Shown piece after piece: positions 5,821 through 45,598 of a stretch of DNA of 45,598 bases; within the stretch, counting starts at the first letter, position 1; each line of letters starts with the position of its first letter. The DNA comes from Candidatus Micrarchaeota archaeon (GTDB lineage Archaea > Micrarchaeota > Micrarchaeia > Micrarchaeales > CABMGC01), in assembly GCA_027328425.1 (NCBI GenBank), contig DAHVUT010000006.1, positions 1-45,598 of the forward strand, given 5' to 3'. Position numbers and translations under genes: made by a program. The notes under the pieces are model-generated. The model did not search any database and was not told where the DNA came from. It saw only the letters and a program-made list of their open reading frames with translations.

Positions 5821-6030
5821 TTGACGTCCTCTCCTATCTGAAGGATAGGAGATTCCTTTTGGATTTCTGAGGTTCGTTTTCTTCATGAGATCACCACAGT
5901 AATTGCGCTGGGCATCATTGCCTCATTGCGCCATTCGTGCTCATTCCATTGAAGTACCGCAGGCTGCGCCAATGCAGCCACTACTCCTATCCCACTGCCC
6001 TTTGACAGCGGAATTCGGAGATACTTTTTC
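5821..6030 (-). ncRNA. Putative omegaRNA scaffold of tnpB element 1 (5' limit approximate)
   Basis: Expected position at the tnpB 3' end plus right end; guide would be the flank ATGCATGCGCAGG. Confidence 0.55.
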
Positions 6031-7127
6031 ATTATGTTCAACGCACCACCTGAATCTGCATTGAATACGACGTTGTGCAGTTTACATCTGTACAAGCCCC
6101 TGTGGATTCTTCCATGCTCTTCATTGCCGCAAAGCGCACAGGTCTTTGAGGTGTCCTTCTCGCTTACTTTCCTGAACATTATGCCGTTTAGTTTTGATTT
6201 ATACTCCAACTGCAAGGTTATCTGTCCGAATATCCATTGGTGGTTTGCCTGATTCGTCTTTTTCCTGAAATGCATCGATTCCCTTATGCCGTTCAGATTG
6301 CCTATCACTATGCCCTTTCCCTCATTCTTTGCAGTATTGACAATCTTTGATGTCATTGCATGGATTTGCTGTTTTATCCTTCTTTTTGCCTGTCTTGCAA
6401 GCCTTCTTTTTTCCTTGCTGGTTTTCTTCTTCTGCATCGAGAGAACTCCTTGCACTTCCGCAACCTTTTTGTCTTTGTACTGGTTTTCTGCAAGCGCAAG
6501 CCCTCCTTTGTATAGAGTCGTATTTTTGCCATCATATATTGCAGCAAGGTTCTTCACCCCAATGTCTATATAGAGATTCTCTTTCGGTATTGAAGGTTCT
6601 GCATTTGGAACATCGAATACCAATGAAACCTTCCATGTTCCTTCTGATTTGAAGATTTCAATATATGCAAGCCTTCCCTCATACCTCAATTTTGGAATCC
6701 TGAAGTTGATATATGATATTCCTGTCTGTTTTCTGTATGCGATTGACATCGGAAGCGTTATTTTGTTCTTTTTCAGTTTGATCTGCTGCGATTTGTACGG
6801 CAATACCCATTCGGTATCTTTCTTATGATAGTGCGGGAATTCCGCAGCAGTGCCTTTCTTGTGGAGTGCAAGAAACGACTTTATGCTTCCTTCTACCTTC
6901 TGAAGCACCGCCTGCGCGGATTGCGACGCAAGAAGCCCATAAAGTTCATTGGTTTTTAGGTTCTTGCACATGTCTTCATAGAAAGAAAACTTCTTTTCTG
7001 CTCTGTACCTTTGATTATTCTCGTACAATGCTGAGTTATACAACCCGTTGGCGATCTTTGAGAGGTTTACTAACGCTTCTTCTGTCTGTTTATTCGGATT
7101 TATTGTTATAACCTGCGTTAGTTTCAT
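5883..7127 (-). CDS. tnpB: TnpB RNA-guided endonuclease with rearranged RuvC-II
   Basis: YIDIG (RuvC-I D), IVIGNL (E to G), VSEKDTSKTC, Zn finger CALC..CKLH, NADSGGALNI (RuvC-III D). Confidence 0.9.
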   Translation of the reverse strand: MKLTQVITINPNKQTEEALVNLSKIANGLYNSALYENNQRYRAEKKFSFYEDMCKNLKTNELYGLLASQSAQAVLQKVEGSIKSFLALHKKGTAAEFPHYHKKDTEWVLPYKSQQIKLKKNKITLPMSIAYRKQTGISYINFRIPKLRYEGRLAYIEIFKSEGTWKVSLVFDVPNAEPSIPKENLYIDIGVKNLAAIYDGKNTTLYKGGLALAENQYKDKKVAEVQGVLSMQKKKTSKEKRRLARQAKRRIKQQIHAMTSKIVNTAKNEGKGIVIGNLNGIRESMHFRKKTNQANHQWIFGQITLQLEYKSKLNGIMFRKVSEKDTSKTCALCGNEEHGRIHRGLYRCKLHNVVFNADSGGALNIMKKYLRIPLSKGSGIGVVAALAQPAVLQWNEHEWRNEAMMPSAITVVIS

Positions 7128-7877: not shown

Positions 7878-9252
7878 CCTTCCACCTCCCGTACTTGCTT
7901 ATCTGCTCCTCCTTGACCCTCTTCATCTCGCGCCTGTCCAGATCCGCGAAAAGCTCCCAGCCCAGGGAGAGCGTCTGCTCTATGTCCCTGTCCTCGTAGA
8001 AACCCTGGTTCACGAAATAGTTCTCAAATTTGTCGGCGAAAGCCAGGAACTTCCTGTCGCCGGCGCTGAGCGCTTCCTCACCCACTATCTCGGTAAGGCT
8101 CCTCAGTTCCTTGCCCCTGGCGTAAGCGGCATAGAGCTGGTCGGCAACTCCCCTGTGGTCATCCCTCGTCCTTCCCTTGCCTATGCCCTGGTTCATCAGC
8201 CTCGAGAGTGAGAGCAGGACGTCGACATTGGGGTACACGCCCTTCCTGTAAAGGTCCCTGCTCAGCACCACCTGGCCCTCGGTTATGTAACCAGTCAGAT
8301 CGGGTATCGGGTGCGTGATGTCATCGCCTGGCATCGTGAGTATCGGCAGCTGCGTTATCGAGCCCTTCCTGTTGTGTATCTTGCCTGCGCGCTCGTAGAT
8401 GCTGGAAAGGTCCGTGTACATGTAGCCGGGGTAGCCCCTCCTTCCGGGCACTTCGTTCCTAGCGGCGCTCACTTCGCGCAGCGCCTCGCAGTAGTTCGTC
8501 ATGTCCGTCAGGATGACAAGCACGTGCATCTGCTCCGTGTACGCCAGGTACTCGGCGGCGGTGAGGGCCAGCCTCGGCAGTATTATCCTTTCCATCGATG
8601 GCTCTGACGCAAGGTTCAGGAACATGACAGACTTGTCCAGCGCGCCAGTCTCCTCGAACTCCTTCTTGAAGAAGTTGGCTTCTTCGCTGTTTATGCCTAT
8701 GCCGCCGAATACGACGGCGAATCCTTCGCTACTGTCGAGCAGCTTCGCCTGCCTCGCTATCTGTGCGGCTATCCTGTTGTGCGGCAGCCCGGAACCCGAG
8801 AATATGGGCAGCTTCTGGCCCCTCACAAGCGAGTTCATGCCGTCTATGCTCGATATGCCTGTCTCTATGAACTCGGATGGCTCTTCCCTGGCGTCAGGAT
8901 TTATGGCGCTGCCCGCTATGTCCATCGATTCCTCGCTGTATATCTTTGGCCCGCTGTCCCTGGGCAGGCCCATGCCGTTGAACACCCTGCCCAGCATGTC
9001 AGTGCTCACGTTCAGCCGGGCAGTGGTGCCAAGAAACTTCACCCTGGTCCTGTTGACGTCGATGCCCCTGGTCTCGGCGAACGACTGCACTATCGCAAGG
9101 CCGTTCCTGCTGTCAAGCACCTGGCCCGTCACGCTGCTTCCATCCTCGAGCCTTATTTCGGCGAGTTCTCCGTATGCAGCATCCTTTATCCCTTCTACGA
9201 ACAGCAGCACATTTGTTACCTGATTCAGCGTCTTGTAGTATACGTCGCTCAT
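7867..9252 (-). CDS. atpB: A/V-type ATP synthase subunit B
   Basis: [44 protein letters not shown]. Confidence 0.97.
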
Positions 9253-21374: not shown

Positions 21375-21510
21375 TACATTGTATTGTATATAAATCTATG
21401 CTTTCCTCGAGTACGCATTTATCTTTGCTTAGCGGGAAAACCCACGATGTTCAATCGTGGGATGAGAGCGAGCTGCAGACAGGAATATAAATACAAATGT
21501 TGACGTAAGT

Positions 21511-22713
21511 ATGGTCATCGTGAAAACCACATACAAATTCAGGGCATATCCTTCTCAGGTTCATAAATCAATGTTGAACCACCAAATGCATCTTTCCAAA
21601 CAACTCTACAATCTCCTTCTTGAAAAGTCGCAGGAACACTTCAAGGACTATGGAAAGGCATTCACAAAATTTGACATGAATAAGTGGATTACCCAACTCA
21701 AGAGGAAGTCCCCGGAGTTCAAGGAACTTCACTCGCAGGTCTGCCAAAACGTCGCAGACAGGGTTTCAAATGGGTATAAGCAATTCTTCCGAAGGATAAA
21801 GGAAAGAGAGACGGGGAAGAAGGTCAGGGCAGGATTCCCACGCTTCAAGTCATTCGTATCATCGTTGACATTTCCGCAGGAAGGCGGGTTCGTCATAGGG
21901 AAAAAGAAGGTCCGTCTCTCGAAAATAGGAAACATCAATTTCGTTAATCATAGGGATATCGAAGGAATCCCGAAGACCTGTGCTATAAAGAAGACTAAAA
22001 CAGACGAATGGTATCTCACAATTTCAACTGAGAAAGATGACATAGTTCCATTCACGAATGGAAAGGGGGCAGTCGGAATGGACCTGGGCATAAAGAAGTA
22101 TGCAGTCTTGTCGGACGGTTCTGTGCTGCATAATACTCACATGTCCGTGAAAGAGAGGTCGAAACTGAAAAGGCTTCAAAGGGTGATCTCAAGGCGTAAG
22201 AAAGGTTCTCGCAAAAGGAGAAAGGCGGTAATCGCTTTCGCAAGGAAATACGAACATATATCAAAAATCAAAGACGACCGCCTGCACAAACTATCGCACC
22301 GTCTTGTCAATTCCTACTCATTCATCGCATATGAGGGACTGGAAATCGCAAACATGATGGGAAACCACCGTCTTGCGAGAAATATCGGTGAGGAGTCTTG
22401 GGGAAAGTTCACCGACTATCTGCGCTACAAGGCTGAGAGCGCTGGTTGCGCAGTGGTCAGCGTAGATCCAAGGAATACGTCAAAGACATGCAGTGATTGC
22501 GGAAACATTCAGTATATATCTCTGTCGGAAAGGACATTCGCCTGCAATAAATGCGGTATGTCAAAGGACAGGGACCTGAATGCATCGGTAAACATACTCA
22601 ACAGAGCTACCTCTGGACAAGGGGGAAGTAACGCCTCTGGAGACAATGCAAGACCTCTCGCAAGAGAGGCAGTTGTCAAGGAACGAGGAACTATAATTGG
22701 CGATTCGCGATGA
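21511..22713 (+). CDS. tnpB: TnpB RNA-guided endonuclease, canonical D-E-D
   Basis: YKFRAYP HTH, FPRFKS, GMDLG, IAYEGL, CSDC..CNKC, DRDLNASVNI. Confidence 0.93.
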   Translation: MVIVKTTYKFRAYPSQVHKSMLNHQMHLSKQLYNLLLEKSQEHFKDYGKAFTKFDMNKWITQLKRKSPEFKELHSQVCQNVADRVSNGYKQFFRRIKERETGKKVRAGFPRFKSFVSSLTFPQEGGFVIGKKKVRLSKIGNINFVNHRDIEGIPKTCAIKKTKTDEWYLTISTEKDDIVPFTNGKGAVGMDLGIKKYAVLSDGSVLHNTHMSVKERSKLKRLQRVISRRKKGSRKRRKAVIAFARKYEHISKIKDDRLHKLSHRLVNSYSFIAYEGLEIANMMGNHRLARNIGEESWGKFTDYLRYKAESAGCAVVSVDPRNTSKTCSDCGNIQYISLSERTFACNKCGMSKDRDLNASVNILNRATSGQGGSNASGDNARPLAREAVVKERGTIIGDSR

Positions 22714-22765
22714 CCATCAAAGACGCCATTGGAAGCCCACGAATTAATTCGTGGGAGGATGTCAC
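22608..22765 (+). ncRNA. Putative omegaRNA scaffold of tnpB element 2
   Basis: Hairpins (CCTCTC-GCAA-GAGAGG; right-end palindrome) and covarying similarity to the scaffold at 44122-44218. Confidence 0.65.
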
Positions 22766-42931: not shown

Positions 42932-43492
42932 ATGGCGAAGGTGTTCCTAGTGTTCGGCATTTCCGGTTCGGGAAAGACCACAGTATTGACAAAAGTGAGG
43001 AATGCAAGAACAGTGAGCGTCGGCACCGAGCTACTCAATGCCTATTCCAGGAAGTTCAAGGGCATGGACAGGGACACGATCAAGTTCAAGGAGCTCGAGA
43101 CGTACGGTCTGCTTTCCCGCGTAAGGAGCGGCGTTTTTGGCAAGCTGGTAAAACGGACAGGCACACTGATGCTCGACACGCACGCGTGCCTGAAGGCCGG
43201 TGACGGCTACGTGCAGGGCCTGTCGCTGCGCGATTGCGAGATACTCAGGGGCAGGTGCAGGGCTATAGTATATATAGACGCCAAGACAAAGGACATACTT
43301 ACCAGGAGGAAGCGCGACAGCAGCAGGAGGCGGGCAAGCCTAAGCGCCGATGAGCTGGATAGGCTCAGAGACATAAGCGTGTCGCTTTCCATGGCATACG
43401 CGCTGCAACTCCAGGTTCCAGTGTACATAGTGCAGAATGACTACATCAAGGACGCGGCGAGGAAAATTGAGGAAATAATCGAGAGGTCGTAG
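42932..43492 (+). CDS. adkA: Archaeal adenylate kinase
   Basis: GISGSGKTT, LDTH, RRKRD..R.R; upstream of DUF106 as in the usual archaeal order. Confidence 0.8.
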   Translation: MAKVFLVFGISGSGKTTVLTKVRNARTVSVGTELLNAYSRKFKGMDRDTIKFKELETYGLLSRVRSGVFGKLVKRTGTLMLDTHACLKAGDGYVQGLSLRDCEILRGRCRAIVYIDAKTKDILTRRKRDSSRRRASLSADELDRLRDISVSLSMAYALQLQVPVYIVQNDYIKDAARKIEEIIERS

Positions 43493-43496
43493 CGGC

Positions 43497-43994
43497 ATGA
43501 TAGGAACTGCAATCGAGCTGGCTGCAATAGCTGTGGCGTATGTAGCGCTGTCCATGTTCCTGCAACGAAAGCTCGGCGACGCCAAGCGCATGCGCAAGAT
43601 GCAGGAGCTGATAAAGGCGAAGAGCAAGGAACTCAATGACATGGCGAAGGCGCAGGCGAGCAAGGAGGCGCTGGAGGCCAAGCAGAAGGAGGTAACGGAG
43701 CTGCTGGGCCAGAGCATGAAGTCGTCCTTCAAGCCGCTCATAGCAGTGCTCCCGGTGTTCTTCATCCTGTACTACCTCATACTGCCGGCCATATTCCCAC
43801 ACACGCTCACGTTCACCATACCTGTCCTCTCCACTGTCAGCTACCAGACTTATTTCATAGTGATAGCATTCATAGCAGGCATAATTTCATCTATCGTGGT
43901 GATGGTCTGGGACAAGAGGGAACTGGCCAGGGAGAAGCAGCAGATAGCGGCCGCGGAGGCGCAGGCCGAGGCCCAGGACAGTGCGCTGCACTAA
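43497..43994 (+). CDS. DUF106/EMC3-TMCO1 family (Oxa1 superfamily) membrane protein
   Basis: TM, coiled coil, SFKPL, two further TMs. Confidence 0.82.
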   Translation: MIGTAIELAAIAVAYVALSMFLQRKLGDAKRMRKMQELIKAKSKELNDMAKAQASKEALEAKQKEVTELLGQSMKSSFKPLIAVLPVFFILYYLILPAIFPHTLTFTIPVLSTVSYQTYFIVIAFIAGIISSIVVMVWDKRELAREKQQIAAAEAQAEAQDSALH

Positions 43995-44071
43995 CAAGAA
44001 GCTATTTATCAAATGCGAGCGGGAAAATACACATGCTTTCGCGGTGGGATGAGAGCGAGCCGATGAAATGG

Positions 44072-44099
44072 AAGCCTCCTTTGCCATCGGAGGCTTTTT
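44072..44099 (+). terminator. Hairpin plus T-run inside mini-element
   Basis: AAGCCTCC-TTTGCCATC-GGAGGCTT ending in a T5 run. Confidence 0.35.
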
Positions 44100-44104
44100 G
44101 ACAT

Positions 44105-44220
44105 CATATCGTTTCAATCGGTATGTGCTCGCTTCACCAGATTTGCCCAGTTGGATTCTGGGTCTTACGTGCCCTCTACGAGCCTTGTCCTCTCGGACTC
44201 CGCCGTGTCCCGACGTATAA
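44105..44220 (-). ncRNA. Inverted TnpB omegaRNA scaffold (5' and central part)
   Basis: Minus TACGTCGGGACACGGCGGAGT..GTAAGACCCAG..CTGGGCA..GAAGCGAGCACATA aligns to 22608-22695 with compensatory stems. Confidence 0.72.
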
Positions 44221-44348
44221 GCAGCTTTCTCCGCAAAGGCATAAGAATCTTTTCGTCCCATGTCAATCATCGTTTCAATCGGAAGCCCACGAATTAATTC
44301 GTGGGAGGATGTCACTAATGCTGTTTGCAATACTAGCGAGGCCTTTGC

Positions 44349-45598
44349 ATGAGAGTGTTACAGCTTGATGTGGAGAAGATAGGCTTTGAGATGCTGAAAC
44401 CTGAGGCCAGCATCTACGAGGAGAGCGAGGAGAAGAAAATCGAGGTTTCAGACGCACTCGTGCTGATGGTCTGTGTGGAGATGGGCGACACAGAGGAGAC
44501 AGGGGAAGCGGCGCTGAAGGACGCTCTGAAATTCATGGAGGATACCGGAAGGAAGAAGCTCGTCATATACCCATATGCCCATCTCAGCAGCAATCTGGCG
44601 GAGCCAAAGGAAGCTATAAAGGTGCTCGACCACATGCGCAAGCGGGTGCCCGATGGGATAGAGGTGAAGGGTGCGCCGTTCGGCTGGAACAAGAAATTCA
44701 GCATAGAGATGAAGGGCCATCCGCTTGCCGAGCAATCCAGGGGTTATGATGCTCAGGGCAAGGGCACGAAGATGAAGAAAGAGAAAGCGAAGCCGCAGGG
44801 CATTAATACAGCCATAGTGAAGAAGAGCGACTGGGCAGGCCTATCAGATACGGATCACAGGACCATAGGCGAAAGGATGGATCTGTACAGCTTCCAGGAA
44901 GTGTCGCCAGCGATGGTCTATTGGCACCCGAACGGTTACACGATATACAAGCAGCTCGTCGCCTTCATGCGGGAGAAGGAGGAGGAGTACGGCTACGAGG
45001 AGATAAGCACCCCTGCGATAGCCAATGTGGCGCTCTGGCACGTCAGCGGCCATATCGACCACTACAAGGACAACATGTTCGCCTTCGACTCGGGCTTCGG
45101 CACTTTAGGCCTCAAGCCGATGAACTGCCCCTCGAGCATGCTCATCTACAAGTCCAGGAAGTGGAGCTACAGGGAGCTGCCCTTCCGCACAGCCATATTC
45201 GACAGGCTCTACAGGAGCGAGCTGAGCGGCGTTGTCACGGGCCTGCTCAGGGTCAAGGAGCTGACGCAGGACGACGGCCATATCTTCGCCAGGGAAGACC
45301 AGATAGGCAGCGAGATAACGCAGGTGCTCAGGATGGTCAAGGAAGTGTACGACACTTTCGGCATGAAATACAGCGCCAAGCTCTCCACGATGCCTGACGA
45401 TCACATGGGAGACGAGGCGCTCTGGGAGCGCGCGACAGGCGAGCTGAAGCAGGCTTTGGATGCAAACAACATGAAGTACGAGGTGAAGGAGAAGGAAGGC
45501 GCGTTCTACGGACCCAAGATTGACTTCGATGTGCTCGACTCGCAGAACAGATCGTGGCAGCTAGCCACGATACAGCTCGACTACCAGCTGCCTACGCG
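44349..45598 (+). CDS. thrS: Threonine--tRNA ligase (3' truncated by window); absent from ORF track
   Basis: Hand translation MRVLQLDVE..YPYAHLSS..APFGWNK..GHPLAE editing domain, then DHRTIG, LKPMNCP, TQDDGHIF, AFYGPKIDF. Confidence 0.95.
   Translation, partial: MRVLQLDVEKIGFEMLKPEASIYEESEEKKIEVSDALVLMVCVEMGDTEETGEAALKDALKFMEDTGRKKLVIYPYAHLSSNLAEPKEAIKVLDHMRKRVPDGIEVKGAPFGWNKKFSIEMKGHPLAEQSRGYDAQGKGTKMKKEKAKPQGINTAIVKKSDWAGLSDTDHRTIGERMDLYSFQEVSPAMVYWHPNGYTIYKQLVAFMREKEEEYGYEEISTPAIANVALWHVSGHIDHYKDNMFAFDSGFGTLGLKPMNCPSSMLIYKSRKWSYRELPFRTAIFDRLYRSELSGVVTGLLRVKELTQDDGHIFAREDQIGSEITQVLRMVKEVYDTFGMKYSAKLSTMPDDHMGDEALWERATGELKQALDANNMKYEVKEKEGAFYGPKIDFDVLDSQNRSWQLATIQLDYQLPT

Follow-up and report, generated by a model that had tools for sequence, protein, structure and literature searches.

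The step from a one-piece transposon guide to the pair of trans-activating CRISPR RNA (tracrRNA) plus CRISPR RNA (crRNA) is believed to lie at the origin of several type V CRISPR systems, and this splitting of the guide has so far been inferred mainly from CRISPR-associated intermediates. 'Functional RNA splitting' has reportedly been described for such intermediates, named TranC, by Jin et al. (Cell 2025). In the available part of another study, the omegaRNA is called a 'natural sgRNA' (single guide RNA), and a split ancestor of tracrRNA and crRNA is proposed as a hypothesis (Nakagawa et al. 2023, PMC10097598). The guide of IS200/IS605 elements is the DNA adjoining the right end (RE), cis omegaRNAs have a role in retention, and palindrome-associated transposable elements (PATEs) frequently code for omegaRNAs that are usable by TnpB only in trans, according to the accessible text of Meers et al. 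(bioRxiv 10.1101/2023.03.14.532601). The subject of the present analysis is a 306-bp mini-element in a stretch of 45,598 nucleotides from a Candidatus Micrarchaeota archaeon (contig DAHVUT010000006.1 of assembly GCA_027328425.1; the whole stretch is called the window below). The best explanation for this locus, held with moderate confidence, is that it is a copy of an old and widespread non-autonomous, PATE-like IS200/IS605 family of Micrarchaeota in which the omegaRNA gene has been permanently split.

Like the PATEs in the accessible text of that preprint (10.1101/2023.03.14.532601), the mini-element is free of protein genes, has a left end (LE) and an RE with subterminal hairpins, and carries guide-RNA sequence. 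Since it carries a guide RNA and no protein, TnpB, and TnpA as well, of other elements must act in trans. The differences concern the RNA. The omegaRNA of PATEs, as described there, is one cis unit, whereas in the mini-elements the scaffold lies opposite to RE and guide in every copy; a promoter box of their own and a covarying repeat/anti-repeat pair also go beyond that description. The parts of the element, in the order of their positions and followed by the tnpB gene used for comparison, are:

44005-44009, plus strand: TTTAT, abutting the left end, candidate transposon-adjacent motif
44010-44315: mini-element, 306 bp, protein-free, IS200/IS605 type, with TTTAT upstream and terminus GGATGTCAC
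44010-44062, plus strand: LE with imperfect subterminal hairpin, kept in all copies
44072-44096: hairpin X, an inverted repeat (AAGCCTCC/GGAGGCTT) with conserved loop TTTGCCATC, specific to mini-elements
44098-44107, minus strand: 5' half of the old loop in the penultimate omegaRNA hairpin, reading AUAUGAUGUCAA and including the left 7-nt inverted repeat
44108-44121, minus strand: left direct repeat, the anti-repeat, former 5' arm of the penultimate omegaRNA hairpin, directly 3' of ACATAC
44122-44218, minus strand: omegaRNA scaffold, with stem 1 (loop GGACA) and long-range stem GCTCG/CGAGC
44146-44162, minus strand: scaffold hairpin CCCAG/CTGGG
44187-44198, minus strand: extra scaffold hairpin
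44233-44255: box GCAAAGG, CATAAGAAT, CTTTTCG, resembling a TATA box between two transcription factor B recognition elements (BRE-TATA-BRE), candidate bidirectional archaeal promoter
44260-44268, plus strand: 3' half of the old loop in the penultimate hairpin, ATGTCAATC, including the right 7-nt inverted repeat
44269-44282, plus strand: right direct repeat, former 3' arm of the penultimate hairpin, directly 5' of GAAGCCCAC
44281-44315, plus strand: RE, with hairpin CCCACGAATT/AATTCGTGGG at 44286-44305 (found by repeat search) and terminus AGGATGTCAC
44316-44335, plus strand: candidate guide flank TAATGCTGTTTGC..., by position only; the start of thrS (44349) is 33 nt past RE
21511-22713, plus strand: tnpB, intact, 400 aa, with its own cis omegaRNA at 22607-22765, candidate trans nuclease

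Both ends are related to those of the tnpB element in the window. LE is homologous to 21431-21479 (E 6.6e-9) in the LE of that element (21426-22765), which likewise has TTTAT in front, and TTAT is found directly 5' of LE in all five mini-element copies of this genome. The last 35 nt, 44281-44315, are identical to 22731-22765; by blastn, 37 of 38 positions agree over 22728-22765, and with a hidden Markov model (HMM) of the mini-element the homology of RE extends over 22714-22765. The minus-strand frame continuing the homology to the 3' part of tnpB stops after 13 codons, as judged by eye. Searches of Rfam gave nothing at gathering score in the whole window and nothing at E up to 5 in 43950-44400. 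By these sequence features, namely homologous ends, subterminal hairpins, presence at many loci, TTAT and a Y1 transposase in the genome, the mini-element is a non-autonomous IS200/IS605 element resembling PATEs or miniature inverted-repeat transposable elements.

The split itself became apparent from comparisons with complete omegaRNAs. An HMM made from the five copies of this genome gave matches to full-length tnpB elements at their 3' ends, but on the strand opposite to these elements (C8, E 2e-5; C17, E 4e-5; C25, E 3e-5). Full-length omegaRNA regions were gathered from this genome and from relatives, and a covariance model, R1, was built from 15 of them. In this set, 96.1% of the cells in six helices are paired and 20 of 40 pairs have changed on both sides, a level reached by none of 500 shuffles. 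R1 aligned end to end with the omegaRNA of the tnpB element (22607-22765, 82.5 bits). The mini-element shares its helices with the full-length omegaRNAs of these genomes, and its guide-adjacent terminus UGUC could pair, by eye, with GACA of loop 1 to form a pseudoknot as in a cis omegaRNA, but instead of a single match the model gave two, of opposite strand: 44098-44218 (minus strand; 17.8 bits, E 4.6e-4) and 44198-44315 (plus strand; 23.2 bits, E 1e-5). Such a pair of matches is present in 14 of the 17 sources searched, and in other copies the scaffold half reaches 46.8 bits. Scaffold, RE and guide are not contiguous on one strand, and the locus is no canonical cis omegaRNA.

The place of the break could be narrowed down. 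Full-length omegaRNAs have the order GAAGCGAGAACATAC, 8-nt 5' arm, 19-nt loop, 8-nt 3' arm, GAAGCCCAC (the RE hairpin) and GGATGTCAC. On the minus strand of the mini-element GAAGCGAGCACATAC is followed by the 5' arm, which is the anti-repeat, and on the plus strand the 3' arm, which is the repeat, is followed by GAAGCCCAC. Halves of the old loop can be recognized by eye at the borders, one of which bears AUGAUGUCA or AUGAAGUCA and the opposite one AUAUCAA: 44098-44107 resembles the loop start GAAGTATCCA of full-length omegaRNAs, with TGRCATCA kept across copies, and 44260-44268 resembles their loop end ATATCAA. Since the halves match the full-length omegaRNA in this way, the breakpoint falls within the penultimate hairpin's loop. 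The two arms of that hairpin are represented by the direct repeat of 14 nt, ATCGTTTCAATCGG (44108-44121 and 44269-44282), which was found by repeat search. In its anatomy the locus thus agrees with an earlier reading of the same letters, called the original prediction here, which had described a mini-element with an omegaRNA scaffold on the opposite strand: homologous ends, the positions of the direct repeat and of the 7-nt inverted repeat TTGACAT/ATGTCAA (44098-44104 and 44260-44266, from the same repeat search), covarying stems, a BRE/TATA-like box inside the flipped part, which is conserved across copies, and the penultimate omegaRNA hairpin obtained on re-inversion were all recovered. A single ancestral inversion would explain the arrangement, by which promoter, scaffold and 5' arm were moved to the minus strand while 3' arm, right-end hairpin, terminus and guide remained on the plus strand.

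This arrangement is not peculiar to one locus. In this genome five copies are found at different loci with different flanks; they are 69-93% identical and all collinear. DNA searches of 61 related genomes yielded full-length copies in other genera and in a second family, and further copies were obtained from 248 genomes of the order, at most two matches being scored per genome. An HMM search over the fetched loci gave 57 collinear full-length matches, which reduce to 50 unique sequences and come from 31 genomes. When one genome of each prokaryote species was scanned for an exact pattern, 33 matches were obtained. Among them, 24 are collinear mini-elements, 21 in metagenome-assembled genomes (MAGs) of Micrarchaeota/Micrarchaeia/Micrarchaeales and three in Marsarchaeota MAGs; the other nine were discarded, eight being bacterial, about the number expected by chance for the pattern, and one a degenerate copy. 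In total, 56 unique copies are known, 50 from the HMM search and six from the pattern scan. All 56 have the same orientation, and none has the cis form.

Some loci contain shortened copies. Deletion derivatives at L046:230-480 (minus strand, genome G035) and L047:120-330 (plus strand, genome G033) consist of LE, hairpin X, one repeat and RE without scaffold and promoter, the product to be expected if the two repeats recombined. L046 has the repeat of a full mini-element in the same genome. At L044:180-400 (plus strand, genome G001), promoter, right repeat and RE are kept and the scaffold is gone. A mosaic is the copy C14 (G000:C14:7711-8018), whose scaffold is by eye identical to 44122-44219 of the window copy (C24), while promoter, LE and both repeat copies, with three adjacent changes each, differ. 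The mosaic points to recombination among mini-elements.

The uniform orientation bears on the idea, contained in the original prediction, of a reversible inversion switch of 44105-44259 with OFF as the assembled state. As in invertons, the promoter-bearing segment of the window copy is bounded by short inverted repeats, a perfect 7-nt pair that is also found in C16, and flipping would restore a cis omegaRNA. In contrast to invertons, only one orientation is found and conservation of the inverted repeats is lacking. With an HMM built for the flipped form, there was no flipped mini-element in the whole genome and in all fetched loci, its long matches being only omegaRNAs of tnpB elements, although this search is not exhaustive because the loci had been fetched by likeness to the present form. 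The comparison with other copies in the genome and in relatives, which had been suggested for this purpose, likewise gave a single orientation. The inverted repeat is kept in C24 and C16 only (recombinase genes were outside the search); it has two to three mismatches in C14 and C4, is not kept in C5 and is absent from the second subfamily. Within 451 nt around the element there are five inverted pairs of 7-8 nt, TTGACAT/ATGTCAA and four others, and the occurrence of this 7-nt pair is not above chance expectation. A search for RNA runs over 43400-44900 listed none; eight public runs, all of DNA and available as contigs, cover the locus. The contigs of four of these runs contain no strand-changing joint and are collinear over 44104-44294, evidence on orientation that is weak because contigs drop rare variants. 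With a fixed orientation and inverted repeats that are not conserved, the switch reading is not supported and is regarded as very improbable.

It is harder still to believe that the order is an artefact of assembly. The element is repeated and therefore prone to mis-assembly, and in public contigs the sequence to the right of the window copy also occurs next to another left neighbour; independent assemblies of 31 genomes nevertheless agree in the internal order, and public contigs (records 13, 29 and 7) are collinear over 44104-44294.

For the scaffold alignment 43 of the 50 copies were used, leaving aside five with long stem-3/4 scaffolds that do not align and two with duplicate scaffold segments. 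In the scaffold stems of 42 distinct copies, pairing holds for 87.5% of the cells, and changes on both sides were seen in 12 of 15 pairs. Covariation as high was seen in none of 500 shuffles for four of five measures and in 22 of 500 for the fifth. Hairpin 4 is paired in 200 of 210 cells with 22 different stems, the register being set per row, which favours pairing. Among non-Watson-Crick cells read on the minus strand, G-U occurs 48 times and A-C ten times, and this excess points to an RNA made from the minus strand. Conserved helices backed by covariation are thus present in the full-length set and in the mini-elements, and the scaffold is under RNA-structure constraint in its present arrangement on the minus strand.

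The two direct repeats vary together. A direct repeat of at least 10 nt is present in 46 of the 50 copies, with repeat/anti-repeat complementarity of 12-23 nt. The penultimate helix, 8 bp in cis omegaRNAs, corresponds to a repeat with a median of 16 nt in the mini-elements. In a set of 48 copies, from which one with an insertion beside the right repeat and a degenerate one were removed, identity of the 14-mers is 95.5% within a copy and 58.1% between copies. Several positions show three or four different bases across copies, yet the two repeats of a copy agree there in 43-47 of the 48. Over all 56 copies, 35 distinct 14-mers were counted; 36 copies match at 14 of 14 positions and ten at 13. 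The predicted duplex of left minus-strand with right plus-strand RNA has a mean energy of -25.7 kcal/mol for cognate and -12.4 kcal/mol for non-cognate partners, and the heterodimer predicted for the window copy forms the repeat/anti-repeat helix (difference in free energy, -21.4 kcal/mol). A scaffold-borne anti-repeat complementary to a repeat that is joined to the guide, the feature of dual guide RNAs, is therefore present.

Recurrent origin of mini-elements from different full-length parents, by which identical repeats would be obtained for free, was also considered. It was discarded: all mini-elements have a common repeat pattern, hairpin X and promoter, and their repeats are unlike the arms of full-length hairpins.

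These data can be set against the possibility that the family is a functionless relic, in which one inversion killed the omegaRNA of a PATE, spread by TnpA needs nothing but the ends, and the identity of the repeats and the pairing of the stems are inherited or upheld at the level of DNA, for instance by recombination among copies. Derivatives without scaffold or with one repeat reside at loci of their own (L046, L047, L044), ten of the 56 copies have at least two repeat mismatches, and the mosaic copies show that recombination takes place. But although overall divergence between copies reaches about 31%, 46 of 56 have 13 or 14 of the 14 repeat positions identical, across 35 14-mers, the 12 of 15 scaffold pairs changed on both sides were scored among mini-elements alone, a strand-asymmetric G-U bias is expected of RNA and not of DNA, and the promoter box is conserved. 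In addition, a 14-nt repeat with its copies 161 bp apart would be a poor substrate for gene conversion. The original prediction had offered a single inactivation as the alternative to switching; it is unlikely because repeat copies and scaffold stems kept covarying in the present arrangement. A relic is accordingly the less likely outcome, though the strongest competitor of a split guide.

If both halves are used, both have to be transcribed, and the box at 44233-44255, halfway between the scaffold and the right repeat, is a candidate for the promoter. Its consensus across copies is CAAAC-ATATATAT-ACCTTTTTG, and both flanks of the TATA sequence are conserved. Read on the minus strand, an A-rich BRE is followed by TATA, the centre of which is a median of 23 nt from the scaffold boundary. 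From the scaffold start to the first base of the right repeat the median distance is 53 nt (interquartile range 51-55). According to the accessible part of a study on Pyrococcus furiosus (Grunberger et al. 2019, PMC6640164), pairs of divergent starts that share a TATA box are separated by about 50 bp (49 bp in vitro), and the motif is BRE-TATA-BRE. The symmetric TATA box and the A-rich flanks are alike in both cases, and the presumed starts of the mini-elements, with their median of 53 nt, are close to the distance of about 50 in P. furiosus (PMC6640164). The antisense products of P. furiosus are mostly taken as non-functional in the same text, whereas those of the mini-elements would be halves of one functional RNA.

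Hairpin X has no counterpart in the full-length elements that were compared. Across copies, covariation is seen in its stem and conservation in its loop, which is GAUGGMAAA on the minus strand. In the 12 nt past the hairpin, 4.94 T residues are found on average on the minus strand versus 2.74 on the plus strand (50 copies), and hairpin X may be the 3' hairpin of a minus-strand RNA. The motif UGAUGUCA after the anti-repeat was inspected as a possible second RE terminus followed by a fixed guide. This candidate was rejected: on visual alignment it corresponds to the ancestral hairpin loop's 5' half, and downstream of it lies a hairpin with covarying stem that was found by blastn only in mini-elements of this genome.

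Part of this evidence would equally fit a scaffold RNA acting alone, that is, a structured minus-strand RNA serving as a guide-less decoy or regulator that titrates TnpB, or as another small RNA, without a partner from the plus strand. The minus-strand promoter is the better conserved one, covariation and G-U bias demonstrate a constrained minus-strand RNA, hairpin X with the T-richer tract could terminate it, and the wobble counts in the repeat duplex, 13 G-U-compatible versus 9 incompatible transitions, are not significant. What a scaffold RNA alone leaves unexplained is the within-copy repeat identity of 95.5% in the face of divergence between copies; nor does it give a reason for the growth of the arm from 8 to a median of 16 nt or for the position of the right repeat exactly at the junction of 3' arm and RE hairpin. 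It is considered improbable, more so than the relic.

A naturally split omegaRNA remains, for which we see about balanced prospects: a divergently transcribed pair of a tracrRNA-like scaffold and a crRNA-like repeat/RE/guide, which would pair in trans and be used by a TnpB from elsewhere. One symmetric BRE-TATA-BRE box would drive both directions. Leftward, a tracrRNA-like scaffold RNA would start at about 44218 and end in the anti-repeat (44121-44108), perhaps continued by hairpin X. Rightward, a crRNA-like RNA from about 44266-44269 would comprise the repeat, the RE hairpin, GGAUGUCAC and the flank as guide. In the cell, the repeat/anti-repeat duplex of 12-23 nt would restore the penultimate helix in trans, and the paired guide would be loaded by the TnpB, which would cut the empty site (TTTAT plus flank) and thereby retain the mini-element as is the case for full-length elements.

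Several observations speak against such a two-part guide. The ten copies with at least two mismatches in the 14-mer look decayed, the cognate partner is the best one in 33 of 48 copies only, and the wobble test mentioned above did not reach significance for the repeat duplex. The proposal of a rightward promoter draws on symmetry and spacing only, and the conserved ATATCAATCA before the right repeat would fall upstream of a start 25 nt from the TATA centre. The scaffold of the window copy is a weak match to R1 (17.8 bits) with an extra hairpin and with GTAGA instead of GGAGA, which is invariant in full-length RNAs. Since copies without scaffold exist (L046, L047, L044), the scaffold is dispensable for persistence, and since the copies are related and recombining, counts of cells overstate the number of independent events. 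Finally, scaffold similarity did not reveal a cognate TnpB: the local alignments with six full-length scaffolds span 7-22 nt only.

Candidates for proteins acting in trans are nevertheless present. The tnpB product of 21511-22713 has Pfam matches to Cas12f1-like_TNB (1.7e-25), OrfB_IS605 and HTH_OrfB_IS605; its gene is 21 kb from the mini-element, and further tnpB genes are located elsewhere in the genome. The original prediction had named this TnpB as the user of a stand-alone guide. That some TnpB must act in trans holds, but the short alignments do not allow this particular gene to be designated as the partner. A Y1 tnpA gene is located at G000:C20:7914-8264 (PF01797, 129 bits), and Y1 tnpA was detected in all five genomes tested. 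The region G000:C20:7795-9366 is likely an autonomous element, in which a tnpB-like frame (8849-9205) comes after the Y1 tnpA (7914-8264). The C4 and C5 mini-elements have the same RE hairpin as this element, which is a candidate transposase source for the family. A second, distant tnpB is found in the window at 5883-7127 on the minus strand, with 22% identity to the first by tblastn, together with a weak omegaRNA model match (5821-5902, minus strand, 19.6 bits).

Compared with the dual guides of type V CRISPR systems and of TranC, as these are reportedly organized, a split omegaRNA of the mini-elements would be similar in that an anti-repeat scaffold RNA and a short repeat-guide RNA would pair in trans and in that the split is in the loop of a hairpin near the guide. 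The differences are considerable. The mini-element has no CRISPR array and one repeat each, the nuclease gene is not adjacent, the guide is a fixed flank rather than an acquired spacer, and the split occurred by inversion in a mobile element. The window contains zero CRISPR arrays, one repeat per element and a tnpB 21 kb away; because there is no array, the locus does not belong to the type V/TranC systems. A further difference from type V/TranC is that, with the penultimate helix as the place of the split, the RE hairpin stays with the crRNA-like part. To judge from its sequence, the element would work like a dual-RNA guide, without belonging to any CRISPR type.

A full-text literature search, with most subscription journals outside it, returned no title or beginning of an abstract describing a transposon-borne omegaRNA split by inversion. 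That the locus represents an array-less split generated by inversion in a protein-free transposon, with one bidirectional promoter, compensatory upkeep in dozens of Micrarchaeota genomes and repeats that in many copies are the copy's own, is a tentative view, to which we give slightly less weight than to the split as such. The comparative signal is strong. If true, the family would be a tracrRNA/crRNA split that still resides inside a transposon, a living example, independent and without CRISPR, of the proposed 'RNA splitting' step for dual-RNA guides of type V. It would mean that such a split can arise by simple inversion of DNA, be tolerated and then be locked in by selection, requiring neither an array nor an adjacent nuclease. 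The many natural repeat/anti-repeat variants are a ready test set for the acceptance of bimolecular guides by TnpB, and the family may yield orthogonal two-part guides for compact editors. Should the split RNAs be inactive, the constraint that keeps two direct repeats identical would still call for an explanation.

The host genome is a 542-kb MAG in 27 contigs; genomes of relatives have 0.5-1.1 Mb. The family occurs in numerous tiny acidophilic archaea. Neighbouring genes of the mini-element code, according to Pfam, for a thermosome subunit, a YidC/EMC3-like protein and a threonyl-tRNA synthetase with archaeal editing domain. After 44280, in the right repeat, most public contigs that cover it have one extra G (five of five contigs in run X1), and the other four copies of the genome have GGG where the window copy has GG, a difference that comes from a 1-nt variant or from faulty assembly of the window copy. 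A contig of 1189 nt, present in runs X1 and X2, covers the thrS flank from 44316 on and is preceded by 328 nt unlike the window. This 328-nt stretch, the sequence of which is absent from this genome, ends with TTTAT directly in front of 44316 and thus forms a junction TTTAT|TAATGCTG with another left neighbour; in X1, the depth at 44318-44368 comes from this contig alone. The junction may stem from a variant in the population, from a site that is empty or rearranged, or from a chimeric join of the MAG at the repeated element.

Within the mini-element, the LE motif AGCGAGC (44054-44060) is complementary to GCTCGCT (44127-44133) of the inverted scaffold. The minus strand of LE therefore offers a second GCTCG as a possible competitor for the long-range scaffold stem, a complementarity that may be due to chance. 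A tRNA scan of the window detected zero tRNAs. Elsewhere in the genome, at G000:C27:24380-24600, the right end of a tnpB element is followed after at most about 35 nt by a tRNA-like sequence (GCGCCCTGGTAACTCAGTGG...GGTTCGA...) recognized by eye.

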